A stretch of 64,000 nucleotides of DNA from Candidatus Babeliales bacterium. Its GTDB lineage: Bacteria; Babelota; Babeliae; Babelales; RVW-14. The DNA lies in assembly GCA_019746485.1 (NCBI GenBank), contig JAIERW010000001.1, positions 6,917-70,916 on the forward strand. Reading direction: 5' to 3'. The notes under the pieces were generated by a model. The model was not told where the DNA came from. It saw only the letters and a list, made by a program, of their open reading frames with translations, and ran no database searches. A program made the translations under genes and the position numbers. Of the stretch, positions 11,250 through 43,007 are shown piece after piece. Every line of letters starts with the position of its first letter. Positions within the stretch are counted from its first letter, which is position 1.

Positions 11250-11289
11250 GATTACTCCTAAAAAAATAAAACTGTTCCTACCGGGACGC

Positions 11290-14356: not shown

Positions 14357-14407
14357 AAAAATACCCTTATTAAAAATTAAAGAATTATAATTCTTGTTGG
14401 GGGTATA

Positions 14408-14436
14408 ATTATAGCCTAAGCACGCGTGCGATACAA
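14408..14436 (-). promoter_or_regulatory. Candidate promoter (TTGTAT-17-TATAAT) embedded in the 3' end of the PQ-loop gene
   Basis: The minus strand reads aattctaTTTGTATcgcacgcgtgcttaggcTATAAT. This is the third copy of the conserved promoter architecture. Confidence 0.45.
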
Positions 14437-23893: not shown

Positions 23894-25228
23894 ATGTTTC
23901 ACAAGCTAATTAGAACATTTTGGGGAGACCTAAAAGGACAAGAACTTACTAAGTTCCTTCTTCTCGCGCTGGGCTTTTTCTTTTTAATCGGATCATATTG
24001 GCCATTAAAAACCCTTAAAGACAGCATTTTTGTTAACATCGTTGGTCCTGAATACATTCCCATGGCAAAAATTTTGTCACTCACCATATTCTTCCCACTG
24101 GTTATGATTTATTCAAAGCTGGTAGACATTTTTGTTAAAGAAAAAATGGTGTACCTGTTGGTGAGCGTTTACGGCTTTATCGGCCTTATTTTTGTTTACT
24201 TTTTTTTCCATCCAACAATCGGCTTGCAAAACAGCATTCCAAGTGCTTCTCGCTTGCTTGGCTGGCTGTTCTTTTTGTACGTTGAAAGTTATGTTTCGTT
24301 AATGATTTCACTCTTCTGGTCATTCACGCACGACATTACCACGCCAGAATCGGCAAAAAAAGGTTATGGACTTATTATTTTTGGCACACAGCTTGGCGGC
24401 TTCTTGCTCACGTTGTTGGGCAATAGATTGTCGGCAGACCCAGAGCTTTATGCTTCTCGAGCACCAATCATTGCACTGATTTCGATCTGCTTATTTTTCT
24501 TTATCGCACTGGTAACCTTTATTTTGCATAAAATTGTTGCCAAAGAAATTTTGGAAGGATACGAAGATAAAGTTGCACCTGCAACTCTGGAAGAACCAAC
24601 CTCCGTTGGCTTTTTGGACGGCTTAAAACTCTTGCTCACGCATCCGTACGTTGCCGGCATCTTCTTCCTCATCTTTTTTCATGAATTTGTTTCAACCGTT
24701 ATGAACTTTCAAATGATTATGCAAGCAAAAACAACCTACGTTTCTGCTGGCTTAGTTAACAAATTTCTCTTCGACTACGCGCTGGCAGTACAAGGGACTG
24801 CATGCTTGTTTGGCTTGCTCGGTACGTCATTCTTTCAACGTCGCTTTGGCATACGCTTTTGCTTAATTGCCTACCCGCTGCTGTTGGGAATCTCAATTGT
24901 TTACTACCTTGCCAACCCAACCTTGCAAAGCATTTTTTATGTAATGATCATTGCAAAAGCAATCAATTACGCCTTCAACCAGCCAGCCAAAGAAGTTCTT
25001 TACATCCCAACAACCAAGAATATAAAATACAAATCTAAGGCCTGGATCGACATGTTTGGCATGCGCTTTTCAAAAGCTGCAGGCTCTACCGCAAATACTA
25101 TTATTGTTACCATGTCGTACCTGACCGGCCCTATTGTTTTATCGCTTATTGCTATCTGGGCCATCCTGGCAAGCATGATTGGCAAAACGTTTAATACTGC
25201 CATTTCGGAAAAAAAGATCATCGATTAG
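23894..25228 (+). CDS. Nucleotide (ATP/ADP) translocase family transporter, paralog 1 (TLC/NTT family)
   Basis: N-terminal KFLLLALGFFFLIGSYWPLKTLKDSIFV plus LFWSFTHDITTPESAKKGYGLIIFGTQLGG. Both match the remembered TLC/NTT pattern (..FFFILFNY..LR.LKD..VV; FW.FAN.IT...EAKRFY.LFG). The protein is polytopic. Confidence 0.85.
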   Translation: MFHKLIRTFWGDLKGQELTKFLLLALGFFFLIGSYWPLKTLKDSIFVNIVGPEYIPMAKILSLTIFFPLVMIYSKLVDIFVKEKMVYLLVSVYGFIGLIFVYFFFHPTIGLQNSIPSASRLLGWLFFLYVESYVSLMISLFWSFTHDITTPESAKKGYGLIIFGTQLGGFLLTLLGNRLSADPELYASRAPIIALISICLFFFIALVTFILHKIVAKEILEGYEDKVAPATLEEPTSVGFLDGLKLLLTHPYVAGIFFLIFFHEFVSTVMNFQMIMQAKTTYVSAGLVNKFLFDYALAVQGTACLFGLLGTSFFQRRFGIRFCLIAYPLLLGISIVYYLANPTLQSIFYVMIIAKAINYAFNQPAKEVLYIPTTKNIKYKSKAWIDMFGMRFSKAAGSTANTIIVTMSYLTGPIVLSLIAIWAILASMIGKTFNTAISEKKIID

Positions 25229-25404
25229 CACCAATAAATGGTGCCTGAATCAACTATTTGCAAGAATGGTTGATATGAAATATACTGATTGCCTATTGAA
25301 AACGAAAGGATACAGTGTCTATGAACAAAAGTGGGTAGGTACTTATTCGTAATAAAAATAGTAAGAGAACAACATTTTAGTAACCTTTTTTAGGAGCTTT
25401 TTTT

Positions 25405-26703
25405 ATGCTGAGTAGAATTAAACACGCCCTCTGGGGAGATTTGACCAAAGACGAAGTTAAAAAATTTGGTATGCTCTCATTCACGTTCTTGTTCATTATT
25501 GGTACCTACTGGCTCATGCGTCCACTCAAAGACGGTCTTTTCATGGACTTGGTTGGACCTGCATCATTGCCTTACGCCAAAATGCTTTCATTCGCGTTCA
25601 TTGTTCCTTTAATTCTTTTCTATTCCAAGCTTGTTGACTTGGTAGAAAAACAAAAGCTGTTCTATGTTTTGTGTACTATTTATGGCATTTTATTTGCCGG
25701 CGTTGCATTTTTACTTGCACAACCAGCCTTTGCACTTAACGGCCCAAGCACCCCTGCAAAGCGTATGCTTGGCTGGTGCGTATATTTGGCTATTGAAAGC
25801 TTTGGTTCATTGTTGGTTACCCTTTTCTGGTCGTTCGTTGCAAGCTCAACCGACACGACTTCAGCAAAAAGAGGCTACGCGCTCATTATTTCAGGCGCGC
25901 AAATTGGTTCCATCACCGGACCTTATTTGGCAACAAACGCAGAACACCTTGGTCTTTCATTGTTGACCGGCATTGTTGCTGGCGGCATTTTGCTGGTACC
26001 TTTGTTGATCAAAATGTTCATCACCATATACCCAAGCTCAGCTGAAAAGAGTGTTTCAACCAAGCCAAAAACCGGCGCGTTTGAAGGTTTTAAACTCTTG
26101 CTGACCAAGCCATACCTTCTTGGCATACTTGGCGTTGCAACATTGTACGAAGTAATTGGTACCGTTATCGACTACCAACTCAAATATTTGGCAAAAGAAA
26201 CCTATGGCAGCGCAGAAAAAGTTACTCAATTCTTGGGCTACTTTGGTTTGACCACCAACGCACTTGCTTTGGTATTCTCGTTGATTGGAACAACATTCTT
26301 CATCAACCGTTACGGCCTTACCTTCTGCTTGGTTATGTATCCAGTGAGCGTTGCCATTGTTTTGGTAAACATCTGGGCATTGCCTGGTCTTTGGGTAGTA
26401 TTTGCGGGCATGGTTGCTATTAAAGGCTTCAGCTACGCATTGAACAATCCATGTAAAGAAATTATGTACATCCCAACCAGCAAAGACGTTAAGTTTAAAG
26501 CTAAAGGTTGGATCGACATGTTCGGTTCTCGTTCTTCTAAAGCAACAGGTGCTGGTATTGGTTCCATGTTCTCAAGCATGACCAGCCTTGCACTCTACGG
26601 ACCACTTGTCTGTATGGGTATTGTAGGCATCTGGATTATGGTTGCCTTGTACGTTGGCAGAACCAACAAGAAGCTTGTTGATAGCAAAACAATCATTGAG
26701 TAA
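25405..26703 (+). CDS. Nucleotide (ATP/ADP) translocase family transporter, paralog 2
   Basis: Same architecture: FTFLFIIGTYWLMRPLKDGLFM and LFWSFVASSTDTTSAKRGYALIISGAQIGS. AGGAG lies 9 nt upstream of the ATG. Confidence 0.85.
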   Translation: MLSRIKHALWGDLTKDEVKKFGMLSFTFLFIIGTYWLMRPLKDGLFMDLVGPASLPYAKMLSFAFIVPLILFYSKLVDLVEKQKLFYVLCTIYGILFAGVAFLLAQPAFALNGPSTPAKRMLGWCVYLAIESFGSLLVTLFWSFVASSTDTTSAKRGYALIISGAQIGSITGPYLATNAEHLGLSLLTGIVAGGILLVPLLIKMFITIYPSSAEKSVSTKPKTGAFEGFKLLLTKPYLLGILGVATLYEVIGTVIDYQLKYLAKETYGSAEKVTQFLGYFGLTTNALALVFSLIGTTFFINRYGLTFCLVMYPVSVAIVLVNIWALPGLWVVFAGMVAIKGFSYALNNPCKEIMYIPTSKDVKFKAKGWIDMFGSRSSKATGAGIGSMFSSMTSLALYGPLVCMGIVGIWIMVALYVGRTNKKLVDSKTIIE

Positions 26704-26730
26704 TCTGATTGTTTTTAAAAAGCAGAAAAA

Positions 26731-26759
26731 AGCCGGAGCAGAAAGCTCCGGCTTTTTTC
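26731..26759 (+). terminator. Rho-independent terminator after NTT paralog 2
   Basis: Perfect 9-bp GC-rich stem: agccggagc (26731..26739) pairs with gctccggct (26745..26753), followed by TTTTTT. Confidence 0.7.
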
Positions 26760-26838
26760 TTGTTATCTTTAGTTTAATGTGCGTAATGCGCTAAACTAAA
26801 GATAGTACGTGAAGATTATTCAAAAAAAAGGAGACTTA

Positions 26839-28134
26839 ATGCTTAGTTCTATCAAGCAGGCCCTGTGGGGCAAATTAACAGGCGAAGAGTTTAAACGGTT
26901 CGGTATTTTATCGCTCACCCTGCTGCTCATTTTAGGCACTTACTGGCTCATGAAGCCACTCAAAGACGCGCTCTTTGCAAAAATGGTGGGGCCCGATTTT
27001 TATCCGTACGTAAAAATTCTTTCCTTCTGGTTTACCATCCCGCTGATTCTGCTCTATTCCAAAGCGGTCGACCTGTTTGAAAAGCAAAATTTGTTTTATA
27101 TCTTTTCGGCATTTTACGGCTCGCTCTTTTTCATTATCGCGCTGTTGCTTGCCCACCCAACCATTGGCCTTGCCAACACCACGCCAAGCAAGTACCGCAT
27201 TTTGGGCTGGGCGCTCTACGTAACCATTGAAACTTTTGGCTCACTCATGGTTGCCCTTTTTTGGGCCTTTGTTGCAAGTTCCACCAACACCGACTCTGCA
27301 AAGCGAGGCTATGCCCTAATTATCGCTGGCGCCCAAATTGGGACCATTGCCGGACCCTACATTGCCCTGAGCGCCCCAACCCTGGGTATCCCGCTCCTCA
27401 TGTTTTGTATTTGTGGTGGCGTAGCCCTGGTTCCGGTCTTGATTAAAATTTTCACACATTTCAACCCACGCGCTGCCGAGCATCATGCACCATCGCTTAA
27501 AACGGGGCCCATTGAAGGGCTTAAGCTTTTGCTCACCAGACCTTACCTGCTGGGCGTGATGGGCGTTTCGGTTTTGTACGATATTGTTGCCACTATTCTT
27601 GAATTCCAAATGGTCTCACTAGCCAACTCACAGTTTCATTCAACCGAACACTTGGCACGTTTCTTGAGTTACTTTGGTTTAATGACCAACGGCTCAGCGT
27701 TACTCATCTCGCTAATCGGTACCAGCTTTTTGGTGCGCCGCTTTGGGCTGACTTTCTGCTTGGTTATCTACCCCGTTATTACTGCGATTGCCCTGCTCCA
27801 CATTTTATGGATACCCGCTTTGTACGTTGTAGTTGGCGCGCTGGTGGTAATAAAAAGTTTGAATTATGCACTCAATAACCCGTGCAAAGAAATGCTCTAC
27901 ATTCCAACGAGCCGCGATATTAAATTTAAAGCGAAGAGTTGGATTGATATGTTTGGTAACCGTTCGGCCAAAGCTGGCGGTGGTTTCTTGAGCACCTTTT
28001 TTACACAAGCGCATGAGCTGATTTTTTACGGCCCACTGCTTTCGCTTGGTGTAGTCGGCGTTTGGATTATTATTGCACTGTACACGGGCACAACGCATCG
28101 TGCGCTTGAAAAGAGTAATCGAACGATTGAATAA
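26839..28134 (+). CDS. Nucleotide (ATP/ADP) translocase family transporter, paralog 3
   Basis: Start at ATG 26839 (MLSSIKQALWG) with AAGGAG six nt upstream. It is close to paralog 2: LFWAFVASSTNTDSAKRGYALIIAGAQIGT and NNPCKEMLYIPTSRDIKFKAKSWIDMFG. Confidence 0.85.
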   Translation: MLSSIKQALWGKLTGEEFKRFGILSLTLLLILGTYWLMKPLKDALFAKMVGPDFYPYVKILSFWFTIPLILLYSKAVDLFEKQNLFYIFSAFYGSLFFIIALLLAHPTIGLANTTPSKYRILGWALYVTIETFGSLMVALFWAFVASSTNTDSAKRGYALIIAGAQIGTIAGPYIALSAPTLGIPLLMFCICGGVALVPVLIKIFTHFNPRAAEHHAPSLKTGPIEGLKLLLTRPYLLGVMGVSVLYDIVATILEFQMVSLANSQFHSTEHLARFLSYFGLMTNGSALLISLIGTSFLVRRFGLTFCLVIYPVITAIALLHILWIPALYVVVGALVVIKSLNYALNNPCKEMLYIPTSRDIKFKAKSWIDMFGNRSAKAGGGFLSTFFTQAHELIFYGPLLSLGVVGVWIIIALYTGTTHRALEKSNRTIE

Positions 28135-28966: not shown

Positions 28967-31423
28967 ATGTTGGTCACAATGGATTACAAAAAACAGTTTA
29001 ATCATTTCATAAGCAAAGAGCTCAATAAACCACAGCAAGAAGCGGCAACGCAAAAGTCTGGTGCACTGCTGGTTATTGCCGGCGCAGGCTCAGGCAAAAC
29101 GCGCGTTATTACCGCTCGCATTGCCAATTTAATTATTAACGAGAATGTAAGCCCAAAGGCCATTACCGCGCTCACATTTACCAACAAAGCTGCCGAAGAA
29201 ATGAAAGAGCGCTTACACAAATTTTTAGACGGCAACCACCAACTTCCCTTTGTTGGCACGTTCCACTCGTACTGCCTGCTGCTCTTGCGCACCAACCTGC
29301 ATTATCTTCCAGCACCGTACTTTTCAATTCTTGATGGTGACGACCAACTCAGCATCGTAAAACAAATTATAAAAAAAGGTGCTCTTGAAAAGCAGATTAC
29401 GCCCTCGCAAATTATGTACCAGCTGTCGCAATATAAAAATAAGTATTTCATGAATCCACAAGAGGCTGAAAACACAGTCAGTCCGCTCATAAAAGAAATT
29501 TATCATGCGTACGAAGCTGAAAAAACAGCCGCTCACAGCTTTGATTTTGACGATTTGATTTTGCAAGTCTTAAAACTATTTAGAACCAACAAAACTTTTA
29601 AGCGCGATTTTCAGGCAAAAATTAAGCACGTACTGGTTGACGAATATCAAGACACCAGCCATACGCAGCACGAGCTGCTGCGGCAAATGGGGCTTGATGA
29701 TGACAAAAAATTTATTCTAGATTCACTGTGCGCCGTGGGCGATGAAGACCAATCAATTTATTCCTGGCGCGGAGCAACGGTGACCAACATGCTTAAAATT
29801 AAGCAGGAGTTTGCGCCAGTAACCACCGTTAAAATTGAACAGAACTACCGCTCCGTCACACCTATTTTAGAAACTGCTAATCATGTGATTCAGCACAACA
29901 CGCAGCGCAACCCTAAAAAATTGTGGTCTGAAAAGCAGGGCAAAAATAGAATTTTATTACTAACCTGCCGCTCGGGCGAGCAAGAGGCAGACGCCGTTGC
30001 GATTTTATTAAAAAATTTACCAGAAAACAAAAAACTGAGTAACGTGGCACTATTGTACCGCACGCACTATCAATCGCGCTCGTTGGAAGAATCGTTAATT
30101 TACCACGCTATCCCCTACCGCATTATTGGCGGTATCCGTTTTTATGAGCGCAAAGAAATTAAAGACGTTTTGGCATACCTGCGCTTGATGGTCAACCCGT
30201 TCGACCGCATCAGCCTGCTGCGCATTGTTAACTATCCGCTACGCGGGCTGGGGCAAAAGTTTGAAGAACAGCTGATGGAAGCCTGGCAGCAAAACCCACT
30301 ACTCGACTTTCAGCAACTGATTACTCATTTAATTTCAAGCGAAGGCGTTAGCTCAGCAAAACAGCTGGCACTCAAACAATTTTTGGCAATTTATACAACC
30401 GCACCTAAAAACGGCTCGCCTTCAGATTTGATAGATCATGTGCTGACCAAAATTGATTATCTTAATTATTTGCGCACCACGCTGGACGCACAAGAGGCTG
30501 ATACTAAAATTGAAAACGTACGCGAATTGGTGCAATCAATTGCTACGTTTGAAAAGAATTTTAGCGGCTCACACGAATCACTTAACCCCAACGACCCGTT
30601 TGCCAGCAACTCAAACGCACCAACGCTAGAAAACTTTTTGTACGAAGTTACGCTGATGCAAGAAAAAAGTGACAACGAAAATCGCGATGACCAAGTCTGT
30701 TTAATGACGCTGCACGGATCTAAAGGCCTTGAGTTTGATATGGTTATTATTACCGGCCTTGAAGAAGAAATGCTGCCGAGCGGCAAAGCGCTCAACACCA
30801 ACGAAGAGCTTGAAGAAGAGCGACGCCTGTTTTATGTGGGCATTACGCGGGCAGAAGAACGCTTGGTACTCACACACGCTGATTACCGCAACCGCTTTGG
30901 CACCATTGTACACCAAATTCCATCACGCTTTTTGTCTGAGCTTAAGCGCCCGCTGGTTCAAGAGTTTAACGCGAGCAATGCTCATGCAACGCAACTTAAA
31001 ACGCAGTTTAGACGCTGGCTTGGGCTTTCTACCCAGTTTGACCAAAATATTCTAACATTTACCAACTTTATCCCACCCGACCGGCTGAGCACAAAAAATC
31101 AAACAGCGACTACTACGGCTCACGAAAATCGTAGGACCTCTATGCGTAAAACGGCAGCCGTGCACAAAGCACCAGCTTCGTACAAATCCGCATACAACTC
31201 CGTTCGCCCTGAGGAGCCGCGCGCAAGCGGGCGTCTCGAAGGGTCAGCACACAAAGCAGCTCCAACCAGCGAGTGGTACAAAAACCAGCTGGTTGAGCAC
31301 AGTAAGTTTGGCAAAGGGATTGTAACGCATGTTGAAAAGGCCGATGGCGACGCCTATCACATTACCGCCATTTTTCAATCTGGACCTAAAAAGATTCTTT
31401 CCAGCTTCTTGAAGAAGGGCTAA
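28967..31423 (+). CDS. uvrD: UvrD/PcrA-family ATP-dependent DNA helicase
   Basis: Motif I AGAGSGKT, motif II VDEYQDTS, QNYRS, VGITRAEERL, and a C-terminal FGKGIV Tudor-like tail. The start could be ATG 28967 or 28979. Confidence 0.9.
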   Translation: MLVTMDYKKQFNHFISKELNKPQQEAATQKSGALLVIAGAGSGKTRVITARIANLIINENVSPKAITALTFTNKAAEEMKERLHKFLDGNHQLPFVGTFHSYCLLLLRTNLHYLPAPYFSILDGDDQLSIVKQIIKKGALEKQITPSQIMYQLSQYKNKYFMNPQEAENTVSPLIKEIYHAYEAEKTAAHSFDFDDLILQVLKLFRTNKTFKRDFQAKIKHVLVDEYQDTSHTQHELLRQMGLDDDKKFILDSLCAVGDEDQSIYSWRGATVTNMLKIKQEFAPVTTVKIEQNYRSVTPILETANHVIQHNTQRNPKKLWSEKQGKNRILLLTCRSGEQEADAVAILLKNLPENKKLSNVALLYRTHYQSRSLEESLIYHAIPYRIIGGIRFYERKEIKDVLAYLRLMVNPFDRISLLRIVNYPLRGLGQKFEEQLMEAWQQNPLLDFQQLITHLISSEGVSSAKQLALKQFLAIYTTAPKNGSPSDLIDHVLTKIDYLNYLRTTLDAQEADTKIENVRELVQSIATFEKNFSGSHESLNPNDPFASNSNAPTLENFLYEVTLMQEKSDNENRDDQVCLMTLHGSKGLEFDMVIITGLEEEMLPSGKALNTNEELEEERRLFYVGITRAEERLVLTHADYRNRFGTIVHQIPSRFLSELKRPLVQEFNASNAHATQLKTQFRRWLGLSTQFDQNILTFTNFIPPDRLSTKNQTATTTAHENRRTSMRKTAAVHKAPASYKSAYNSVRPEEPRASGRLEGSAHKAAPTSEWYKNQLVEHSKFGKGIVTHVEKADGDAYHITAIFQSGPKKILSSFLKKG

Positions 31424-31530
31424 AAAAATCCCATTTGAAACGAATAAAAGCCTTTGCAAACCAGCCAAAAGTACCTTACCATTAACTTATTGGGAAAACT
31501 TTTAGGGAACCACTTTTTGGGGGAATTTTT

Positions 31531-32259
31531 ATGAACCGTACGTTTATTATGTCGCTTGCGGCAATGACATTGTTTAGCTTTTCTCTGGCAGCACACGAAA
31601 GCAGAAAAACCATACGCTCCTTCGATGCAAGCTGGAAGCTTATATTCGAAGAAGCCCTTAAAAAGCATGCTTCCTCCTGGAAACTTGTAAAAGCAATACG
31701 AGCACATGATAATAAACAACTATCCCAGCTTCTTAAAAATCCAACCATCAACGTAAATCCAATCGTCATGAAGGGAAGTGAAGGTTTCGAAACACAATTG
31801 CACCCACTCAATGAAGCAATTTCCTGCAACAATATTGAAGCAGTTAAACTCTTGCTTGCCCACACCGTCACGCTTGGTACAACAAAAAAAGACGCTGATG
31901 GCAATTTGATGAGCCATTATTTCGATGTCAAAGACATCGATGTTAATGCCCCTGGCTATAACGGCCTTACGCCACTGCACACTGCAGTTGGGTATGAAGC
32001 AGTTGACTGCATAAAGCTTTTGCTTGCACACAAAGACATTAAACTGATTGATCAAGACCTTATCGACTTGGTACAACAAGAACTTGATCTGAGAAATAAA
32101 GAAGCTAAACGAGCTCTTGAAATTTGGATGCTCTTGTCTGAACATGGGCAAATTTTAGATGGCCCTGGCGGCATGGGTCCCAACTACGATTGGCAAGGAA
32201 TTTTAATTGGCCCCGACACACTACCGCATTGTCCTTGCTGCACCACAACCATTGCGTAA
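31531..32259 (+). CDS. Secreted ankyrin-repeat protein with Cys-rich C-terminus
   Basis: Signal peptide MNRTFIMSLAAMTLFSFSLAA. ANK motifs FETQLHPLNEAISCNNIEAVKLLLAH and GLTPLHTAVGYEAVDCIKLLLAHKDI. It ends in HCPCCTTTIA. Confidence 0.85.
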   Translation: MNRTFIMSLAAMTLFSFSLAAHESRKTIRSFDASWKLIFEEALKKHASSWKLVKAIRAHDNKQLSQLLKNPTINVNPIVMKGSEGFETQLHPLNEAISCNNIEAVKLLLAHTVTLGTTKKDADGNLMSHYFDVKDIDVNAPGYNGLTPLHTAVGYEAVDCIKLLLAHKDIKLIDQDLIDLVQQELDLRNKEAKRALEIWMLLSEHGQILDGPGGMGPNYDWQGILIGPDTLPHCPCCTTTIA

Positions 32260-32281
32260 ATAACTTGGCTACAAAAAGTTT

Positions 32282-32314
32282 GAGGGGCACGAAAAATCGT
32301 GCCTCTCTTTTTTT
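32282..32314. terminator. Bidirectional terminator between convergent ANK genes
   Basis: Stem gaggggcacga / tcgtgcctctc (7 perfect bp, extendable with G-U pairs), loop aaaa, then a T-run at 32308..32314. Confidence 0.6.
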
Positions 32315-32320
32315 AACTAA

Positions 32321-35080
32321 TTACAACCCCGCCAACTCACTTGCCAACGTTACCAATTTTGCTTTGAGTGCTTCAAGCGCTTGCGATAAGTTTTGCAACG
32401 AGATAAAGCCCGCAAGCTGCTCAGGTGTTCCTTGAAAATCAATAGTACCACTAGGATTTTGTAGTTTTGCTACCGCGTTTTTATCTGCACCTTTTGTAAT
32501 CAGCAATTGAGCAAACCCAGATTTAGCTATCATTGCCAAATGAAGCGGTGTCAGATCTCCTTGCGCTTTTGCATTTACATCGGCACCTTTACTCAACAAT
32601 AAATTGACAATAGCTACATGCTCAGAATTCTTTGGATCAAAATCATAGATAGCATAATGAAGAGGAGTTGCTTGCTGGTCCGCATCTTGTACAGCCAAGG
32701 CAACCGCAGCATTTTTTGACGCATCAAGCAAAACCTGCCACACAGCAAGGCTCAGATTTGGATTTTTTACAGCTTTATGAAAAGCATTTTTATTACTTGG
32801 CGGATATCCAGAAGAAGAAATGGTATCAATCTGGTCCACATCAGCACCAGCATCAATAAAAGCTTTAATTTCTTGCTCAGTTGGCGTTAAATAAGCAAGC
32901 GCATGGTGCAACTGTTGTGATGGCGATAAACCAAAACCTGGTGAAAACGATAAAAGCGGAGCACCATGAAATAGAGCTGCTTGTGATTTCAGTAAATCAA
33001 CAATATCCTGTTTTCCATTAATAAAAGCTAAATCTTCAGGAGTTTGACAAGCGAGATTAACCGCTTTAACATCAGATCCTGCCTTCAACAACGCTTCAAC
33101 TTTTTCTTTCGTTCCAAAACCTGCTGCAACATGAAGCGGGGTAAGCATATCTTTATCAACGGCACCAATACTCGCACCACGATCCAGCAAGAGCTGCACA
33201 ATTTCAAGATCAACATTACCCGCACACGCATAATGAAGCGGCGTGCGGTTAAACACATCTGCAAAATTACTATCAGCACCATCATCAAGAAGTTTTTCTA
33301 TTGCTGCTTTTGTTGGAGAGGCTCCAGAATTGGCCAACACACGCAATAATTCTTTTGATGCAGGCATTGTAAGTACAGAAATAACATCGAGACGATTCAT
33401 ATTTTTAGCTATTACCAGAGGAGTTTCTCCTGCACCATTTTGTAAGCCAGCATCCGCACCCGCCTCTAACAAGCGACCAACTATGTCTCCATGCCCCCAC
33501 CACGCAGCAGAATGCAGTGGCGCATTTCCCGTTGTATCTTTAAAATTTACATTCGCACCAAAAGCAATAAGTCGCTCAATAAAAATTTTGTGTGGCGGGT
33601 CCTGTTTAACAAACTCACACAACTTTGCTCCCAATGCATCACAATCATTTTTATTTAAGCTTGCATCAAAAACCTCAACCTCTTCAAATAAAGCGTTAAT
33701 TTTTTGATGTTCTTCAGACTTTGCTTGAAGTTGATTGGCATCAAGCAAAGTCGACATATTTTTTCCCCAATCTGCAGCCGCTGCCTCAGCAAATTGTTTG
33801 GGGGTGCCGCTTACCAGAACGGCAGAAGTACTGGCACCCGAGATCATATCTTGTTCATACAAGGTGCCCACCAACGAGATATCCGCACCGTACAAAAGCA
33901 AAGAAGATATCAATTGCCCATTTAGACGTACAGCTGCTTTATGAAGTAGCGTAAGTCCGTCACCATCTTGCAAATTAATGTTAGCTCCAAATTTAAGCAA
34001 CGCGTTAACAAATTCAAAAGCACCTCGCTCTAACACCAAAAAAAGAGGTGTCTCGTCTTCATTATTTTTCATTTCAAGCAGATCTTTGTCTTTAGTAAGC
34101 AACCTATTAACCTTTTCGATGGAGCCATATGATACTGCCAGATGCAATGGCGTCATACCAAATTGATCCTTTACCTTAAGATTTGCTCCAGGAGCATCAA
34201 GCAACAGTTGCAGCATTGCAGGAGTAACATTATTTCTTACTGCTGCGTAATGAAAAACCGTAACGCCAGTATTGGTAAAATGCACATTCACATCAGCACC
34301 AGCAGCAAGAAAACCTTTTATTTGATCATACGTTGGCGGATTATTATCTGCATCTTCGAGCGCAAACAACAATCCTTCTGAAGCATTTTTTGGCACTCGC
34401 GCAAGTGCCGGTGCACCTGAGCCCGGCATTGGCCCAGATGGAGCTCCAGGCGCCAATCCAGCACCCGCGGCGGATCCTGAACCTGAGCCCGAACCAGACA
34501 AAACTCCCGCTCCTGATTTTGCCAAAGACTGCGCCAAAAGCCCTTTTATTTTTTCATATCTTGGATAAAGCTTTGGAATAGCTTTCTTCATCGCATCTTC
34601 GCCACCATAACCTGCAGCTCTATCTTCCACAATTTCCAGCGGGGTTTTCAAAACAACGGTACCACCAGAAGCCACCTGAGCTTGTGCGGCAACGTCAGCT
34701 CCTTTTTTCAACAACCAATCTACAAAAACTGGATTAAGACCTTCGGCTGCTTCATGAAGCGGTGTCTTACCGTATTTGTCCGGTACGTTAACATTGGCTT
34801 CTGCGTTCAAAAGCAAGCGAACTATCTCTTGATTATAAAAATCAGTATCCATACGCGGAACGGCACAAAGAAGCGCCGTGCGACCGAGACTAGAATCTTG
34901 CCAATTTAAGTTAATGCCGTGAGTTTCAACCAGGGCTTTTATTTTATCAACCGGTTCTTCGCCAGTCACTGCATTTACCAACTCTTTTCCCAACTCATCA
35001 GGCGTTTTTGCCGCCCCAAAAGCGGTACCCTGCGCACCCAGCGCCAACACAATCACCAACCACAATTTTACTATCTTCAT
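32321..35080 (-). CDS. Giant secreted ankyrin-repeat protein (919 aa), cassette-family member A
   Basis: ATG 35080 with GGGAG six nt upstream; the track starts at GTG 35083. Signal peptide MKIVKLWLVIVLALGAQGTAFGAAKTPDELGKEL. It has more than 15 ANK units and a Gly/Ser/Ala/Pro linker. The C-terminus LSQALEALKAKLVTLASELAGL is related to the tails of the two genes on its higher-coordinate side. Confidence 0.9.
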   Translation of the reverse strand: MKIVKLWLVIVLALGAQGTAFGAAKTPDELGKELVNAVTGEEPVDKIKALVETHGINLNWQDSSLGRTALLCAVPRMDTDFYNQEIVRLLLNAEANVNVPDKYGKTPLHEAAEGLNPVFVDWLLKKGADVAAQAQVASGGTVVLKTPLEIVEDRAAGYGGEDAMKKAIPKLYPRYEKIKGLLAQSLAKSGAGVLSGSGSGSGSAAGAGLAPGAPSGPMPGSGAPALARVPKNASEGLLFALEDADNNPPTYDQIKGFLAAGADVNVHFTNTGVTVFHYAAVRNNVTPAMLQLLLDAPGANLKVKDQFGMTPLHLAVSYGSIEKVNRLLTKDKDLLEMKNNEDETPLFLVLERGAFEFVNALLKFGANINLQDGDGLTLLHKAAVRLNGQLISSLLLYGADISLVGTLYEQDMISGASTSAVLVSGTPKQFAEAAAADWGKNMSTLLDANQLQAKSEEHQKINALFEEVEVFDASLNKNDCDALGAKLCEFVKQDPPHKIFIERLIAFGANVNFKDTTGNAPLHSAAWWGHGDIVGRLLEAGADAGLQNGAGETPLVIAKNMNRLDVISVLTMPASKELLRVLANSGASPTKAAIEKLLDDGADSNFADVFNRTPLHYACAGNVDLEIVQLLLDRGASIGAVDKDMLTPLHVAAGFGTKEKVEALLKAGSDVKAVNLACQTPEDLAFINGKQDIVDLLKSQAALFHGAPLLSFSPGFGLSPSQQLHHALAYLTPTEQEIKAFIDAGADVDQIDTISSSGYPPSNKNAFHKAVKNPNLSLAVWQVLLDASKNAAVALAVQDADQQATPLHYAIYDFDPKNSEHVAIVNLLLSKGADVNAKAQGDLTPLHLAMIAKSGFAQLLITKGADKNAVAKLQNPSGTIDFQGTPEQLAGFISLQNLSQALEALKAKLVTLASELAGL

Positions 35081-35161
35081 CACGCACTCCCTCTTTTTGA
35101 TTTTTCAACGTCAACATAAACCAACATATCTACCAGAGTGGCACAATCAGGAACCAAAAGG

Positions 35162-35191
35162 GAAGAAGAAGAAGAAGAAGAAGAAGAAGAA
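35162..35191. repeat. (GAA)10 / (TTC)10 microsatellite upstream of gene 32321..35080
   Basis: Ten perfect GAA units counted directly. The tract starts 81 nt upstream of the ATG. Confidence 0.95.
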
Positions 35192-35235
35192 GCCTCTCGG
35201 TACGCCCAAGGGGCACTCGAGATGAGCGGGAAAAA

Positions 35236-35285
35236 GGGCTTTCAAGCATTAACAACTCGAAAGCCCTTCTAAAATTTAGTTAAGC
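35236..35285 (-). terminator. Terminator block copy 1 (50-nt repeat, identical to 35960..36009)
   Basis: gggctttc (35236..35243) pairs with gaaagccc (35259..35266) around a 15-nt loop. On the minus strand the hairpin is followed by TTTTT. The block sits immediately 3' of gene 35291..35869. Confidence 0.7.
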
Positions 35286-35290
35286 GTTTT

Positions 35291-35869
35291 TTATGGCACT
35301 AGTACTTGCAGCACACCCGCCAACATTGCCAACTTTGCTTTAAGTGCATTCAAAGTTTTTTTTAATTTTTTAAGCGATGTACGGATAACTATTGGCATTG
35401 AAGGACCACCCACAGAAGCGTGTTTGTTTAATAAATCGCGAACACTTTTGAATTGAGAGGTTGCTTTCTCACTTTCCCATTTTGCATCTGCATCAAGACC
35501 ATCAAACTCTTGGTATGAAAGATCGGGAATACCTCCTTTTCCAGCTTCTAATAATGCCTTCTGCACATCTTCCCCAAAACTTAGCGCCATGGAAAAAGCA
35601 AGCGGCGTACAATTTTTATACTCAACAAATCCAAAGCGGCATGTATATTTTTTGAACAAACTTTCTGCTGGTACTGTTGCAAGAAAAGCAAGAAACACAG
35701 GCATTCCTTTATCACCAGTCATAGTTACATAATCAGGATTGCTCCTGAGCTCAGCAAGTTTTTTACACAACTCTTTCCCCAACTCATCAGGCGTTTTTGC
35801 CGCACCAAAAACCATGCCCTGCGCACCCAGCATCAGCACAACAGCCAACCACAATTTTGCAATCTTCAT
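35291..35869 (-). CDS. Secreted protein, cassette-family member B (N-module of A, C-module of C)
   Basis: MKIAKLWLAVVLMLGAQGMVFGAAKTPDELGKEL shares the signal peptide and first motif with the 919-aa gene. One degenerate ANK-like unit (CTPLAFSMALSFGEDVQKALLEAG). C-terminus LKKLKKTLNALKAKLAMLAGVLQVLVP. Confidence 0.8.
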   Translation of the reverse strand: MKIAKLWLAVVLMLGAQGMVFGAAKTPDELGKELCKKLAELRSNPDYVTMTGDKGMPVFLAFLATVPAESLFKKYTCRFGFVEYKNCTPLAFSMALSFGEDVQKALLEAGKGGIPDLSYQEFDGLDADAKWESEKATSQFKSVRDLLNKHASVGGPSMPIVIRTSLKKLKKTLNALKAKLAMLAGVLQVLVP

Positions 35870-35944
35870 CACACACTCCCTCTTTTTTATTTTTCAACAC
35901 AAGCACACATGCCAGCAAGGCTAGCAAACTGAAAACCAAAAAGA

Positions 35945-35959
35945 GAAGAAGAAGAAGAA
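35945..35959. repeat. (GAA)5 / (TTC)5 microsatellite upstream of gene 35291..35869
   Basis: Five perfect GAA units. The tract starts 75 nt upstream of the ATG and abuts terminator copy 2. Confidence 0.9.
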
Positions 35960-36009
35960 GGGCTTTCAAGCATTAACAACTCGAAAGCCCTTCTAAAATT
36001 TAGTTAAGC
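35960..36009 (-). terminator. Terminator block copy 2 (identical 50-nt repeat)
   Basis: Same sequence as copy 1: gggctttcaagcattaacaactcgaaagcccttctaaaatttagttaagc. On the minus strand it is followed by the T-rich (TTC)5 tract. Confidence 0.65.
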
Positions 36010-36014
36010 AATTT

Positions 36015-36587
36015 TTACGGCACTAGTGCTTGCAGCGCACCAGCCAATGTTGCCAATTTTGCTTTAAGTGCATTCAAAGATTTTTTTAACTGCTTGAGTG
36101 ATTTTTTTGATTCAGCAATTTTGTCTTTTATTAACTGTACAAACGCATTTGCCCAATCGAGTTCATCTTTCCATTTTTTAATATCTTCCGGATCAGGATT
36201 AATACGAAATGGAATACTATCTACGGTTTCTTGTTCTTTAATGCGGTAAATTTCAGCCAACTCAAACAGCGTAAGCACAACAGTCTTATCTCCAGACTCT
36301 ATTCTAACATTAGGATCTGCACCATTCTTCAGCTGAGTTTCCATTGCTTTCCAATCTATAGAATATTTCATAGTATATGAGATAGTTAAGTTCTCTGCAG
36401 AAGTTTTTGAAAAGCTCTTATTTTTTAGACCAACCAGAATCTGAACAGCTTTACCAAAATTAAACTCATGAATTTTCTCACAAATCTTTTTCAATTCTGC
36501 TGTCGCCGCAGGATTATAAGGTTTGGCAACGGTGACAAATAAACAAGAAATAATGAAACTGCCAAAAAATATTTTCTTAATCTTCAT
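36015..36587 (-). CDS. Secreted protein, cassette-family member C
   Basis: Signal peptide MKIKKIFFGSFIISCLFVTVA. C-terminus LKQLKKSLNALKAKLATLAGALQALVP is nearly identical to that of member B. It has an ANK-like NGADPNVRIESGDKTVVLTLFELAEIY segment. Confidence 0.8.
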   Translation of the reverse strand: MKIKKIFFGSFIISCLFVTVAKPYNPAATAELKKICEKIHEFNFGKAVQILVGLKNKSFSKTSAENLTISYTMKYSIDWKAMETQLKNGADPNVRIESGDKTVVLTLFELAEIYRIKEQETVDSIPFRINPDPEDIKKWKDELDWANAFVQLIKDKIAESKKSLKQLKKSLNALKAKLATLAGALQALVP

Positions 36588-36656
36588 ACTTCCTCACTTC
36601 ACAAAAAAATTGGTTTAACTCCTCTTGCCAATAAGATTAACAATCTAGAACACCAA

Positions 36657-36689
36657 GAAGAAGAAGAAGAAGAAGAAGAAGAAGAAGAA
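36657..36689. repeat. (GAA)11 / (TTC)11 microsatellite upstream of gene 36015..36587
   Basis: Eleven perfect GAA units. The tract starts 69 nt upstream of the ATG, in the divergent intergenic region. Confidence 0.95.
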
Positions 36690-36761
36690 AGGCCTTTAAC
36701 CACGTTTTTTACGCCACTACACCCAGCTTTTACCAACTCCTAACCCACTTTTCTAAATTAT

Positions 36762-36790
36762 TTACAAGCTGAACAGACGCGAGCTATACT
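36762..36790 (+). promoter_or_regulatory. Candidate promoter of the ANK-RING gene
   Basis: TTACAA (36762..36767), a 17-nt spacer, then TATACT (36785..36790). It lies about 43 nt upstream of the ATG. Confidence 0.45.
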
Positions 36791-36832
36791 CATAACAAGA
36801 TAGATAATTATTGAATCGCGAAAGGTTTCTCA

Positions 36833-38374
36833 ATGAAAAAGAGCACTTTTTTTGCATTTTTATTCATTTTTGTTTTAAGCAAGAGCCTGAACAGCGCTCC
36901 AGCAGACCAGCCAACCCTGACTGTTCCTGCCAGCATGTGGTACGCTGCCATGGGCTCAACCAACTCATTGGCTCAGCTACCGCCGGCAGCGTTGGTAGAA
37001 CCAGACGACAGCGGCCAAACACCGCTGCACATTGCTGCCCAGAACGGGCACCCCAACACTATTCTGTTTTTATTGCAACAAGGAACGCCGGTAAACGTGG
37101 CAGACAAACAAGGCATAACACCGTTGCACCTTGCCGCTCAGTATGGCCAAAAGCCGTGCGTACAAACGCTGCTCAACCAAAAAGCAGCTATCAACAGTGC
37201 TGGTACCACGGGCATAACGCCGCTGCATTTGGCAGCCTTTTACGGCCAACCTGATATAGTAAAATTGCTTCTTGAGTACAAAGAATGTAACATTGAAGCG
37301 GGTACCAAAGGCAAATCTACCCCACTCCATTTTGCTGCTCAAAGCGGGCAGACTGCCTGCCTAGAAGCGTTGCTAGCAAAAAATGCCAAAGTTGACGTAC
37401 GAAATGCGCTCGGAGAAACGCCGCTCTTGCAAGCAATCAAAAATAACCAGCTGGCCAGCTCACAGCTGTTGCTTAACAAAAATGCCAACCCCAACGTTAA
37501 AGAAAATAGTTCTGGCGCAACAGCACTGCACTTTGCTGCTTTAAATAATTTTAACGAAGGAATCACCGCGCTCTTAAAAGAAGGCGCTACGGTAAACATT
37601 AAAGACAAAAACGGCATGAGCCCGCTACACTATACCGCCGGCAACAATAATCTGAACGGCACCAAACAACTTTTAGAAAGAGGCGCCAGTGTTAACACTG
37701 CAAACAATAATAAAACCACGCCTTTGCACGCAGTGGCAACAAACAACGCACTGGACTGTCTCCCGCTCTTGTTGGCAAAAAATGCCGATGTTAACGCAGT
37801 AGATACTAACAAATCAACCCCGCTGCATTTGGCTGCCACCAACGGCCACGATCTAAGCGTACGCTTGCTGCTCAGTAGCAAAGGAACTAAAGCACTTGGC
37901 ATTGACGCTGTTGATACTGCTGGCGCAACGCCACTGCACCGCGCAGCTCAAAACGGCCATGTGACTGTTTGTTTTATGTTAATCATGAGTGGCGCAAACT
38001 TATTAATGCCAACAACCAATGCTGCCTCTGCCGATGCTAACAAAACGACTCAGGCGCTGGCTGCGCAAAACGGGCACTATGCGCTGGCAAATGCACTGCA
38101 GTACGCGCAAACCAACGGCCAGCTGCCAAGCGTTGCTGCCGCAGGAAGCGCGTGCACTCTTTGTGCTCAACAATTTAATGTTGCAGAAGTTGGCATACAG
38201 CTTCCGTGCGGGCACATTATGCACCCAAACTGCTTGCAAACATTTATTGCTCAACCTGCCCAACTTGCCTACCAATGCCCAACCTGCCAGGCAGCGGCAC
38301 AGGCACAAGGACAAGCGATAGCGGTTTTAATGGTTGCAGCAAACCCAACGAATGAAGCGGTAGGAAAAAAATAA
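36833..38374 (+). CDS. Secreted ankyrin-repeat protein with C-terminal RING-H2 zinc finger (putative E3 ubiquitin ligase effector)
   Basis: Signal peptide MKKSTFFAFLFIFVLSKSLNSA. About 10 consecutive canonical ANK units (G.TPLH.AA..G......LL..). Residues 441..485 read CTLC-x14-CGH-x2-H-x2-C-x14-CPTC, which is C-x2-C-x14-C-x-H-x2-H-x2-C-x14-C-x2-C. Confidence 0.85.
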   Translation: MKKSTFFAFLFIFVLSKSLNSAPADQPTLTVPASMWYAAMGSTNSLAQLPPAALVEPDDSGQTPLHIAAQNGHPNTILFLLQQGTPVNVADKQGITPLHLAAQYGQKPCVQTLLNQKAAINSAGTTGITPLHLAAFYGQPDIVKLLLEYKECNIEAGTKGKSTPLHFAAQSGQTACLEALLAKNAKVDVRNALGETPLLQAIKNNQLASSQLLLNKNANPNVKENSSGATALHFAALNNFNEGITALLKEGATVNIKDKNGMSPLHYTAGNNNLNGTKQLLERGASVNTANNNKTTPLHAVATNNALDCLPLLLAKNADVNAVDTNKSTPLHLAATNGHDLSVRLLLSSKGTKALGIDAVDTAGATPLHRAAQNGHVTVCFMLIMSGANLLMPTTNAASADANKTTQALAAQNGHYALANALQYAQTNGQLPSVAAAGSACTLCAQQFNVAEVGIQLPCGHIMHPNCLQTFIAQPAQLAYQCPTCQAAAQAQGQAIAVLMVAANPTNEAVGKK

Positions 38375-40873: not shown

Positions 40874-42099
40874 CGCTTACGTTTCGTTGCCGCCAAATAC
40901 AGCAGCCAGCTTGAAAAGATCATAAACCCCGCAACGCCCACCGGCAACGCAGGGTTGAGCATGGCCAAAAAGCCACCAAAAAAAGTTCCCAAAACAGTAA
41001 CTAGCGCCTGCATTGCCCAGATCATGGCAATCCCTTTGCCCTGCTTGTCATCATCAACTGAGTTGGAAATTATAGCCATCATGTTGGGCAAAATTGACGC
41101 AATACAGCCAATGTAAAAAACAATAAAAATATATAAACCAATCGTTGTGGGCGGCATAAAAACTGCCAAGCTTAAAAAAGCAAGCAGTGGCAGTGCAGAC
41201 AAAACGATAGTGCGTGGCGCTGCAACGCGCGAAAGTGGACGAACTAGAAAAAGCTGCAATAACAAATACATAACGCCAGCGTACACAAACATACTACCAA
41301 TTTTGTCAGCACCATAATTGAAAACTTTGAGCAAATACGTTGAAAAAAATTGGGTACTAAACGTCCAACCAAAAATAAACAAACTAGCTGCGGCAAAAAT
41401 GCTGCGCAATTTTGGATAATGAAACATCTGCCCAAGATGGCCAAACGTTATAAAAAACTTCTTTCTTTTAACCGGTTTTTTTGGACGATCACGAAATAAC
41501 TGGTAAGCAACAAAAAGCAAATTAAGCACCGTTAAGCCGCCCAAAATTAAGAACGGTATTGCTAAATTATGAGCAACACCAAGCAAAGCATTGGTATATT
41601 GACCGCCCAACAAACCACCACCAATAAAGCCGCAGGCAACTGCAATTTCTACTATACTCATGTTACTCACTTTGTCGGCATTGGTATCATCACTCACGTC
41701 GGCCATAAATGATTGCGCAATAGCAACGTTTGCAGCAAAAAGACCAGCGCAAAAACGGCTGGCAAAAAGCAACCAAACGTTAGCATAATGAATAGCCAAT
41801 GCGGTTAGAAACAAGCTTACTGCTGCACCAGAAAGCGTTATGATCATGGTAAAGCGCCGACCGTACGAATCTGAAATTTGCCCCCAAAGCGGCGACATAA
41901 AAAACTGCCCGGCATAGTAGGCCGTGAGCACAAAACCCACAAAGAGCGTACCGTAAGCGTGCGTGGTTTGTTCTGACAAAAGTTTATACTGAGAGTCTGC
42001 TAATAAAACAGGAAAAACCACCAGTGATACCACAATATTAAGATAATCGAGAAATGCGGCCGACAAAAATGGCGCATACTGCATTATTTTACGATTCAT
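40870..42099 (-). CDS. MFS transporter
   Basis: MFS motif A GQISDSYGRR and about 12 hydrophobic segments. Start set at ATG 42099; the track ORF uses an upstream TTG. Confidence 0.8.
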   Translation of the reverse strand: MNRKIMQYAPFLSAAFLDYLNIVVSLVVFPVLLADSQYKLLSEQTTHAYGTLFVGFVLTAYYAGQFFMSPLWGQISDSYGRRFTMIITLSGAAVSLFLTALAIHYANVWLLFASRFCAGLFAANVAIAQSFMADVSDDTNADKVSNMSIVEIAVACGFIGGGLLGGQYTNALLGVAHNLAIPFLILGGLTVLNLLFVAYQLFRDRPKKPVKRKKFFITFGHLGQMFHYPKLRSIFAAASLFIFGWTFSTQFFSTYLLKVFNYGADKIGSMFVYAGVMYLLLQLFLVRPLSRVAAPRTIVLSALPLLAFLSLAVFMPPTTIGLYIFIVFYIGCIASILPNMMAIISNSVDDDKQGKGIAMIWAMQALVTVLGTFFGGFLAMLNPALPVGVAGFMIFSSWLLYLAATKRKR

Positions 42100-42194
42100 G
42101 AAAGCCCCCCTGAAAACCCCTAAAAATATTCCCTTCCTTTCACGCCATAACGGCACAAAAGGAAGGGCCTGTTCGAACAAATTATGAACGTTTG

Positions 42195-42914
42195 TTATAA
42201 GCGCTCAATATTATTTTTGGTGAAATATTTTGTTTCGTTTTTGGCAAACGGCATTGCATCGTTAAATTCTTTAAGATATTTGTTGGTGCGCTTGAGCGTT
42301 TGCTCATCAATTTTAACCGGAGAATCCCAATCTCCAACTTTAAAGGTCAATGGGATAGCAAGCTTAATGCCTCGATAATTTAAATGACCATTAACCGCAA
42401 GCATTTTTTTCATTGATGTTTTTGGCGTAATAGTAAAATCTTTACCAACCACCAAGCCATTAGGCAACTTAACACCATGACCAGGAACAACAAAGTAACC
42501 TTCCTGGGTTTTAATTACCTCAAAGAAACGACCGCTAATACTTGGATTGCGGCTTGCATAAGGCCCGCGCCATTTTTTTGGATACGCCAGATTAAGTCCA
42601 CCAATAATTGAACCTTCAAAACTTTTGGTCGTCAAAAAGTCAACAATCGCATGATCACCGTGAATACTCACAATATTGCAACGTTGGTCGATATCGTGCA
42701 ATATCGATTCAATGTTTTTAAGATTGCCGGTAATCACTGAAGAAACGAAATACGGCTGGTTATAGTACAATTTGCCTAAAAAAGTAAGTAACAAAATTGC
42801 CAAAATTGCCGTACTAAAATAAATGAAATAAGACCTAAAGAATCTAAAAAATGGTCCCATTTTTCGATCAACTCGACGATCGATTGTATCCATAAAATCA
42901 TCAAGCTTTTTCAT
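42195..42914 (-). CDS. Hypothetical membrane-anchored protein
   Basis: ATG 42914 with AAGGAG six nt upstream. One N-terminal TM (FIYFSTAILAILLLTFLG) precedes a soluble domain with no recognised motif. Confidence 0.5.
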   Translation of the reverse strand: MKKLDDFMDTIDRRVDRKMGPFFRFFRSYFIYFSTAILAILLLTFLGKLYYNQPYFVSSVITGNLKNIESILHDIDQRCNIVSIHGDHAIVDFLTTKSFEGSIIGGLNLAYPKKWRGPYASRNPSISGRFFEVIKTQEGYFVVPGHGVKLPNGLVVGKDFTITPKTSMKKMLAVNGHLNYRGIKLAIPLTFKVGDWDSPVKIDEQTLKRTNKYLKEFNDAMPFAKNETKYFTKNNIERL

Positions 42915-43007
42915 AACACACTCCTTTTTGAGCATTTTTTTGCACTCCCTTAACCTTCCCCAGTGGTTTATTGTATAAAAAAATGCTGGCAAAAATAAAT
43001 ATATTGC

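Follow-up and report, generated by a model that had tools for sequence, protein, structure and literature searches.

A mosaic tandem array of putatively exported ankyrin-type proteins with a shared leucine-zipper tail and length-variable upstream TTC tracts in a Candidatus Babeliales bacterium

We analysed a stretch of 64,000 nucleotides (nt) from a Candidatus Babeliales bacterium (assembly GCA_019746485.1), called the window below, in which three adjacent genes, A, B and C, carry common end modules around different bodies, with a trinucleotide tract upstream of each. Babeliales are part of the Dependentiae (TM6), obligate intracellular bacteria that parasitise protists. All coordinates are positions in the window. 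The three open reading frames were confirmed and lie head to tail on the minus strand. Gene A (32321..35080) codes for 919 amino acids (aa) from its ATG, comprising a signal peptide, an ankyrin-repeat body and a type-I leucine-zipper tail. Gene B (35291..35869; 192 aa) consists of a signal peptide, a domain that we call B-middle, a linker and a type-II tail. Gene C (36015..36587; 190 aa) has a different signal peptide, an orphan body and a type-II tail. The signal peptides were assigned by inspection, with MKIVKLWLVIVLALGAQGTAFG/AA in A, a matching sequence in B, and MKIKKIFFGSFIISC... with a possible lipobox (IISC) in C. On its sequence, the locus is best read as a fast-evolving tandem array of putatively Sec-exported, host-targeting proteins of an obligate intracellular member of the Babeliales.

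The protein of gene A, which is P0003 in the public protein collection, matched the Pfam families Ank_2 (E 5e-73) and Ank (E 1.3e-64). B and C had no ankyrin match in Pfam at E <= 0.1, and carry ankyrin-like fragments only (TPLAF...LLEAG and LKNGADPN); apart from these, B had no Pfam match and C gave only weak noise from coiled-coil families. BLASTP detected no significant similarity among the three proteins beyond the tail. Word-seeded searches of 5.8 billion proteins with B and with C recovered only the queries, and the body of C has no detectable relative. Homology between the middles of B and C was considered and not established (profile comparison E 0.028, probability 1.8%).

Genes A and B begin with a common 5' module of 131 nt (34979..35109 in A and 35768..35898 in B, both on the minus strand), which includes a leader with a GAGGGAG ribosome-binding site, the signal peptide and the stretch AAKTPDELGKEL, and is 88% (87.8%) identical between the two genes. 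The leaders agree at 27 of 29 nt (positions -1 to -29), the signal-peptide codons 1-22 at 53 of 66 nt, and the mature codons 23-34 (AAKTPDELGKEL) at 35 of 36 nt. Over codons 35-60 only 24 of 78 nt are identical, which is the chance level, and every codon differs from 35 on, indicating that the module has a sharp border after codon 34. The common leader and first 30-plus residues reported for A and B in the initial annotation were therefore borne out. Gene C does not carry the 5' module (45-48% identity).

At the other end, genes B and C have in common a 3' module of 160 nt that is 87% identical and contains the tail codons, the 3' untranslated region (UTR) and a hairpin (35219..35378 in B and 35943..36102 in C, minus strand). 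The last 28 codons and the stop, which include the roughly 25 final residues previously noted as common to B and C, are identical at 74 of 87 nt (85%), and the 3' UTR through the end of the hairpin at 55 of 57 nt, compared with 19 of 93 nt for the 31 codons upstream of the tail (-29 to -59). An identical downstream block with a hairpin had also been described. The block is real, but it measures 52 nt (35234..35285, equal to 35958-36009, minus strand) and not 50. It holds a 16-bp hairpin, the terminator of B, whose core has exactly two copies in the window where chance would give 0.00. The terminator hairpin of C (35956..35994, minus strand) continues with its 3' arm directly into the (CTT)n tract of B. 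The 16-bp stem, with a folding energy of -26 kcal/mol and a z-score of -6.5 for the C copy, is that of an intrinsic terminator. The U-tails are only moderately U-rich (UCUUCUUCUU after C and UUUUCCCGCU after B), so that read-through is possible. Gene A ends at a bidirectional terminator hairpin (32282..32307), which it has in common with a convergent ankyrin gene (31531..32259) that faces it. A search of Rfam gave nothing above noise in 31400-37000.

The closest public relative that we found is another Candidatus Babeliales bacterium (NCBI assembly GCA_019749895.1), hereafter the sister genome, whose genes flanking the array are 89-92% identical to those of the window at the nucleotide level. 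An exhaustive hidden Markov model search of 1.84 billion representative proteins, with a profile built from the ends of A together with B and C, recovered A, B and C and two further informative proteins, P0004 and P0006, both from the sister genome. Word-seeded protein searches with B, C and a profile of six tails returned the queries themselves or nothing, and the JGI metagenomes contained no match for B or for the tail alignment. A DNA pattern of the tail gave 17 matches in GTDB genomes, which equals the chance expectation, all in unrelated contexts, and was discarded.

At the syntenic locus, the sister genome has a single gene, that of P0004 (392 aa), between its ankyrin-RING gene and its convergent ankyrin gene, compared with three in the window. 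P0004 is composed, in order, of an A/B-type signal peptide, ankyrin repeats, a B-like segment, further ankyrin repeats, a linker and an A-type tail, followed by an A-type terminator to which the bidirectional hairpin of gene A is orthologous. A and P0004 have ankyrin repeats in common after the signal peptide. The whole middle of B aligns with residues 129-244 of P0004 (44% identity over 119 aa, E 6e-29), and the junction ELGKELCKKL of B matches P0004 at two places, LGSALCSEI after the signal peptide and GRELCEKL at residue 129. The ATG of P0004 is preceded, at a distance of 76 nt, by a (CTT)6 tract. On another contig of the sister genome, P0006 and the product of its downstream neighbour (g2) are signal-peptide ankyrin proteins with the same tail. 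The tail is their best conserved part (82% over 85 nt), with weak ankyrin similarity elsewhere. Type II secretion or pilus genes were found near the P0006 locus.

The tail of A (32324..32401, minus strand; 26 codons, SLQNLSQALEALKAKLVTLASELAGL) is of type I, and those of B (35294..35377, minus strand; SLKKLKKTLNALKAKLAMLAGVLQVLVP) and C (36018..36101, minus strand; SLKQLKKSLNALKAKLATLAGALQALVP) are of type II. As the initial annotation had proposed, A ends in a diverged form of the helix found in B and C. The homology extends over 39 nt at 79-82% identity, with BLASTP E values of 0.008 against B and 4e-4 against C. The search for the tail in relatives found it at two loci of the sister genome, in three further exported ankyrin proteins. 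In all six tails, eight leucines are invariant and spaced 3-4-3-4-3-4-3, corresponding to the a and d positions of 3.5 heptads, which exceeds the three heptads with hydrophobic a and d residues that a coiled coil or leucine zipper calls for. Flexible Gly/Pro/Ser-rich linkers precede the tails, and the chain ends exactly on the last leucine in four of the six proteins. Only the leucine pattern and a central ALKAKL motif are conserved, and the net charge varies. Codon changes in the tail were 13 synonymous versus 5-6 non-synonymous when C was compared with P0006 and g2, and 10 versus 3 between P0006 and g2. These mostly silent changes show that the tail peptide is under purifying selection. Together with its recurrence in the three additional proteins, they support the earlier proposal that the tail is functional and not a remnant of duplication.

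The strict leucine pattern at a and d led us to read the tail as a coiled coil. AlphaFold2 made it helical in the models of both B and C, with a block-mean predicted local distance difference test score (pLDDT) of about 53 in B and about 55-82 in C. A profile search of the PDB with the tail returned designed coiled coils only, at E 1.3-8.5, which is not significant. Among them, CC-Hex2, CC-Type2-LL and CC-TypeN-LaLd (4pn9, 6g6d and 7qdk) carry Leu at a and d with flanking Ala and Lys as the tail does, a likeness of composition and pattern only. LPXTG, PEP-CTERM, GlyGly-CTERM, type IX secretion system (T9SS) C-terminal, F-box and PRANC domains had no Pfam match in A, B or C at E <= 0.1. The evidence favours a putative short leucine zipper for oligomerisation or docking. 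Ankyrin (Ank) proteins of poxviruses and Orientia carry short C-terminal interaction domains (PRANC or F-box). Like gene A, they combine a variable ankyrin body with a small conserved C-terminal helical module across paralogs. Unlike them, the proteins of the array have putative Sec signal peptides and a single heptad helix in place of the three-helix F-box. The poxvirus ankyrin C-terminal domain case is cited in PMC6561590 (reference 29).

The comparisons above show that the array is a mosaic. The identity profile is step-like, with 86-97% inside the modules and 20-31% directly beside them. The tails of A and P0004 form type I, and those of B, C, P0006 and the neighbour of P0006 form type II. 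B was identified as a recombinant because it has a P0004-like body but a type-II tail, a 3' UTR and a hairpin that are nearly identical to those of C. This combination of a P0004-like body with a C-type tail is direct evidence of module exchange. The 5' modules of A and B are 87.8% identical to each other but only 70% (A) and 76% (B) identical to that of P0004, with flanks at about 90%, which indicates that the 5' module was duplicated or homogenised after the species split. Moreover, the near-full identity at synonymous and non-coding sites, in AAKTPDELGKEL and in the 52-nt block with its loop, points to gene conversion or recent exchange and not to selection alone. The recombinational shuffling put forward in the initial annotation is thus supported. 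Its unrelated, swapped middles did not stand; identity beside the modules is at chance, but the middle of B is 44% identical to P0004, and A and P0004 share ankyrin repeats. The middles of A and B look like parts of one P0004-like ancestral gene that may have been differentially lost or kept and expanded. The flank upstream of the tract of C was also considered as a relic of the 3' end of a fourth cassette, but its score was reached by 15-20 of 300 shuffles and is not significant.

Other explanations of the common ends were weighed against module exchange and a zipper. Plain tandem duplication with uniform decay, which would make the similar ends mere leftovers, fits the adjacency and common orientation of the genes and the many tandem arrays of signal-peptide ankyrin genes in the window. 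It is extremely improbable, as the alignment placed the ends far above the middles. At either border, one or two codons suffice for identity to fall to chance, all 52 nt of the non-coding block agree although the adjoining tail codons stand at 85%, and the tail type that B attaches to its P0004-like body is absent from P0004. An ancient duplication whose ends were kept similar by strong selection alone, with neither conversion nor exchange, would account for a tail under purifying selection and for signal peptides and terminators, which are functional. However, the 35 identical nt of AAKTPDELGKEL include synonymous sites, the hairpin loop and the UTR before the hairpin are identical as well, the 5' modules of A and B are closer to each other (88%) than to that of the sister ortholog (70-76%), and B and P0004 differ in tail type. 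We therefore consider this explanation unlikely. The main rival to the zipper is a tail that acts as a signal for sorting, for secretion or for anchoring in membranes, for example to cross the outer membrane or to bind host membranes. The tail is always the very last part of a Sec-exported protein and follows a linker, which would suit such a role, and so would the hydrophobic distal half in B and C and the Type II secretion or pilus genes near the second locus. On the other hand, the charge is not constant (neutral in A, basic in B and C) and only the a and d leucines are invariant. The basic residues of the B and C tails lie before and not after a hydrophobic stretch of about 13 residues, a short one, and the hydrophobic moment is moderate (0.29-0.31). 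No known sorting domain was recognised by Pfam, and most signal-peptide ankyrin proteins of the window are without the tail. A sorting role is thus possible but doubtful, and we retain the leucine zipper as the preferred reading of the tail.

Each gene of the array is preceded by a perfect trinucleotide tract that reads (GAA)n on the forward strand and (TTC)n on the gene strand. The (GAA)10.3 tract at 35162..35192 has its near end 81 nt upstream of the ATG of A, the (GAA)5.7 tract at 35944..35960 lies 74 nt upstream of the ATG of B and abuts the hairpin of C, and the (GAA)11.7 tract at 36655..36689 lies 67 nt upstream of the ATG of C. All three are of 100% purity and are the only trinucleotide tracts in the 64 kb; the initial annotation did not mention them. 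In the approximately 106 kb examined, no other such tract was found besides these and the (CTT)6 tract of the sister genome.

The long tracts differ in length between nearly identical genomes. The window was compared with a TARA Oceans scaffold (L001) to which it is 99.3% identical along 13.4 kb. Between 32476 and 37000 the sole differences in the scaffold are one unit fewer in the tract of A and four units fewer in that of C, with zero substitutions. The short alleles were also present in Logan contigs, namely both in X1 (TARA), that of the A tract in X6 (TARA), and that of the C tract in X18 (drinking water, a separate study). Some drinking-water runs are an exact match to the window, and their unitigs (k = 31) end at both long tracts, as would be expected if these are at least 31 nt long or heterogeneous. 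The short tracts were invariant, with 5.7 units upstream of B in both strains and 6 units in the sister genome in six separate assemblies. Logan joints that run from tract to tract (e.g., 35193 to 36656) are most likely artefacts of low-depth repeat graphs, and the same applies to an X6 contig that joins a C-type tail to the downstream flank of B; neither was used. Contigs with a sequence 100% identical to the locus (window 32200-36900) were observed in X1 and X6 (TARA marine, tiny assemblies), X2-X5 (drinking water) and X7 (a lake metatranscriptome), and also in X25, X26 and X28, which are apparent RNA libraries (the type was guessed) under two coded organism labels. The RNA-labelled runs contributed short contigs only. 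The occurrence of the locus in such disparate datasets suggests either a very widespread freshwater clone with a protist host or a contaminant of water or reagents.

The interval between tract and leader is a candidate promoter or operator zone. In A it spans 35110..35161 (minus strand) and is partly conserved with B, C and P0004. A promoter scan found no sigma-70 promoter between tract and ATG, and a sigma-54 reading was rejected by eye for its wrong spacing. Comparison of the intervals 35110-35161, 35899-35943 and 36588-36654 with L019 9925-10000 revealed a dyad-like box, TTG(C/T)-N11-(G)GCAA, between tract and leader that is common to B, C and P0004. A Bacteroidetes-like TTTG-N19-TAnnTTTG fits P0004 well and the others partly, and is left as a guess.

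The arrangement resembles phase-variable systems in other bacteria. In Neisseria and Haemophilus, the copy number of tracts upstream of the core promoter modulates transcription (TAAA repeats of nadA and 7-bp repeats of hmw). There too the repeats lie upstream of a gene for a surface or secreted factor, but the repeat units and organisms are different, and experimental proof and a known regulator binding exist only in those systems. A closer parallel is provided by the vlhA (pMGA) genes of Mycoplasma gallisepticum, which are tandem cassettes whose GAA tracts have conserved flanks and precede the transcription start by about 40 nt (PMC6258824). The vlhA genes have no sigma-70 promoter, and their expression is tied to tract number (PMC6258824). 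Both vlhA and the present array are made of tandem paralog cassettes for exported proteins, with a perfect GAA/TTC tract of strain-variable length upstream of each, conserved tract flanks and no canonical sigma-70 promoter. In contrast to the dozens of vlhA genes, the array has three, and the tract dependence of expression that was shown for vlhA would here be inferred. The products also differ, being surface lipoproteins in vlhA and ankyrin-type effectors of a Gram-negative-type intracellular protist parasite here. No sequence homology to the VlhA haemagglutinins was found in A, B or C by Pfam, which gave only ankyrin for A, nothing for B and coiled-coil noise for C, so that the likeness is limited to mechanism. 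The array has two features of a repeat-controlled contingency locus, a perfect tract upstream of each paralog and tract lengths that differ between near-identical genomes, and this apparently length-dependent instability upstream of exported-protein paralogs is a contingency-locus signature.

Three explanations would deprive the tracts of a role in transcription. The differences in length might be artefacts of assembly, given that repeats are error-prone in short-read assembly, that the long alleles occur only in the assembly of the window itself, and that the Logan unitigs of the drinking-water runs break at the tracts. This is very unlikely, as the short alleles recur in the ENA assembly and in Logan contigs (X1, X6 and X18), breaks are what long alleles of at least 31 nt predict, and every tract is shorter than a read. 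Alternatively, the tracts may be real but have no regulatory role, being slippage-prone, near-neutral sequence or scars and substrates of duplication. Their location at cassette junctions, where the hairpin of C runs into the tract of B, would agree with this, as would the lack of a known promoter and the tail genes without a tract at the other locus. Perfect tracts are, however, found upstream of all three paralogs, they stay at 67-81 nt from the ATG also in a sister species at about 90% nucleotide identity, and the approximately 106 kb contain no other such tract. In small bacterial genomes, neutral microsatellites as long as 10-12 units are uncommon and soon lost. We accordingly view the absence of a regulatory role as a possible explanation but not the probable one. 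The tract might also be transcribed, by read-through from the preceding gene or from a start farther upstream, in which case its (CUU)n RNA would pair with the start region (AUGAAGAU) and the purine-rich ribosome-binding site and act on translation. Minimum-energy folds pair the tract with the ribosome-binding site and start region in four of four leaders, a contig from the lake metatranscriptome covers the region (35010-35189), and the U-tails of the hairpins are weak. But the z-scores of the folds are weak too (-2.2, -2.5, -1.8 and +0.3), any pyrimidine tract pairs with any Shine-Dalgarno sequence, and the contig is without strand information and from a library that may contain DNA. The chances of such an RNA-level effect are slim.

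Taken together, we propose that the locus is an effector array that evolves fast, with a tail for oligomerisation and with repeat tracts as candidate drivers of expression switching of the vlhA kind, and we assign this reading a probability of roughly 0.6. Each gene would consist of a 5' unit (a perfect (TTC)n tract, then a zone with promoter and leader, then a signal peptide), a variable body (ankyrin repeats in A, a small inter-ankyrin domain in B, an orphan in C), and a 3' unit (a flexible linker, the leucine-zipper helix of 26 residues and a terminator hairpin). Gene conversion and unequal crossing-over between the end modules, and possibly at the tracts, would duplicate genes and move ends between them. 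Through the tail, the exported proteins may form homo- or hetero-oligomers or bind a partner that has a coiled coil. Slipped-strand gain or loss of tract units close upstream of the promoter could alter the expression of single genes stochastically, as in vlhA. Several points weigh against this proposal. The AlphaFold2 models of B and C, made without an alignment, are poor (mean pLDDT 45). Each tract has two alleles only, all from assemblies or contigs. There is no recognisable promoter, so the position of the tract relative to it is assumed, and the tract reads (TTC)n on the coding strand as opposed to (GAA)n in vlhA. At its second locus, the sister genome has two genes with the tail but no tract, indicating that tract and tail are separable. 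The metatranscriptome contig, which spans 180 nt (35010-35189) from the start of A through its tract, may be DNA carry-over. Finally, the difference in gene number may reflect either expansion here or loss in the sister genome. A stronger version, in which the tracts are true contingency switches that randomly set single effectors on, off, higher or lower and co-expressed members form mixed zipper oligomers that yield a combinatorial, bet-hedging effector repertoire, appears rather unlikely. If it were true, it would be the first repeat-driven phase variation reported in Dependentiae, acting on host-directed effectors and not on antigens that face adaptive immunity.

The surroundings of the array are those of a host-dependent bacterium rich in exported ankyrin proteins. 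The window contains three tandem nucleotide (ATP/ADP-type) transporters, SecA, PcrA and many small tandem signal-peptide ankyrin genes. The transporters are three tandem paralogs of the nucleoside triphosphate/diphosphate (NTP/NDP) exchange (TLC) type at 23894-28134 (plus strand), close upstream of the array, with a PcrA-type helicase gene between. This arrangement, typical of energy parasites, is also kept in the sister genome. On each side the array is flanked by one more signal-peptide ankyrin gene, one of which has a RING finger. The product of the latter (36833-38374, plus strand) has a signal peptide and about 10 ankyrin repeats, with a RING finger at the C-terminus (zf-RING_2, E 1.6e-7). 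This candidate eukaryote-like E3 ligase adjoins the array in the sister genome as well (512 aa). The cultured Babeliales bacterium Chromulinavorax destructans has 98 ankyrin proteins, 78% with signal peptides (PMC6561590). The present genome is similar to it and to Babela massiliensis in having many tandem ankyrin genes, mostly with Sec signal peptides, and an energy parasitism based on nucleotide transporters (PMC6561590).

Further families of exported proteins were observed in the window. Nine consecutive small genes at 707-6702 (minus strand; 142-257 aa) form a second tandem exported-ankyrin array. Eight of the nine have similar signal peptides (M.KKI.L.SLVL...), while the gene at 4093-4866 starts differently; most carry ankyrin-like repeats and none has the leucine-zipper tail. 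Two signal-peptide proteins at 9805-10182 and 10665-11291 (minus strand) end in a common motif, AECGRR[GA]SF, with related genes at 9365-9829, 10230-10637 and 14000-14452 and an internal (F)DGKTL(Q/E)(Q/E)LA in several family members. This family is a second case of a common C-terminus among neighbouring paralogs. In a signal-peptide ankyrin protein at 8081-9361 (minus strand), about 30 serines in a row immediately follow the signal peptide. The TARA scaffold differs from the window by 78 substitutions, of which 75 fall in 42000-43500 (about 5% divergence versus about 0 elsewhere). This patch, with genes at 42195-42992 and 43008-44888 that have no Pfam match, suggests an imported or hypervariable segment.

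In the searchable open-access literature, we found no account of Babeliales ankyrin effectors that have a common C-terminal leucine-zipper tail, exchange modules with neighbouring genes or carry upstream tracts. The kinds of mechanism are known from mosaic paralog families and repeat-driven switching elsewhere, and it is for the effectors of Dependentiae that they appear to be undescribed there. The Dependentiae are widespread and almost uncultured, and a large share of their genomes consists of exported ankyrin proteins of unknown action. The locus offers a nucleotide-level view of how such effectors may diversify, with fixed end modules as recombination handles around changeable bodies, and it yields a short, conserved tail that lends itself to direct tests in peptide form. 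If the tracts control expression, stochastic switching would extend to a phylum in which it is not expected, one that infects unicellular hosts without adaptive immunity. Should that be the case, the question would be which force favours it, such as defences of the host or variability of its populations.

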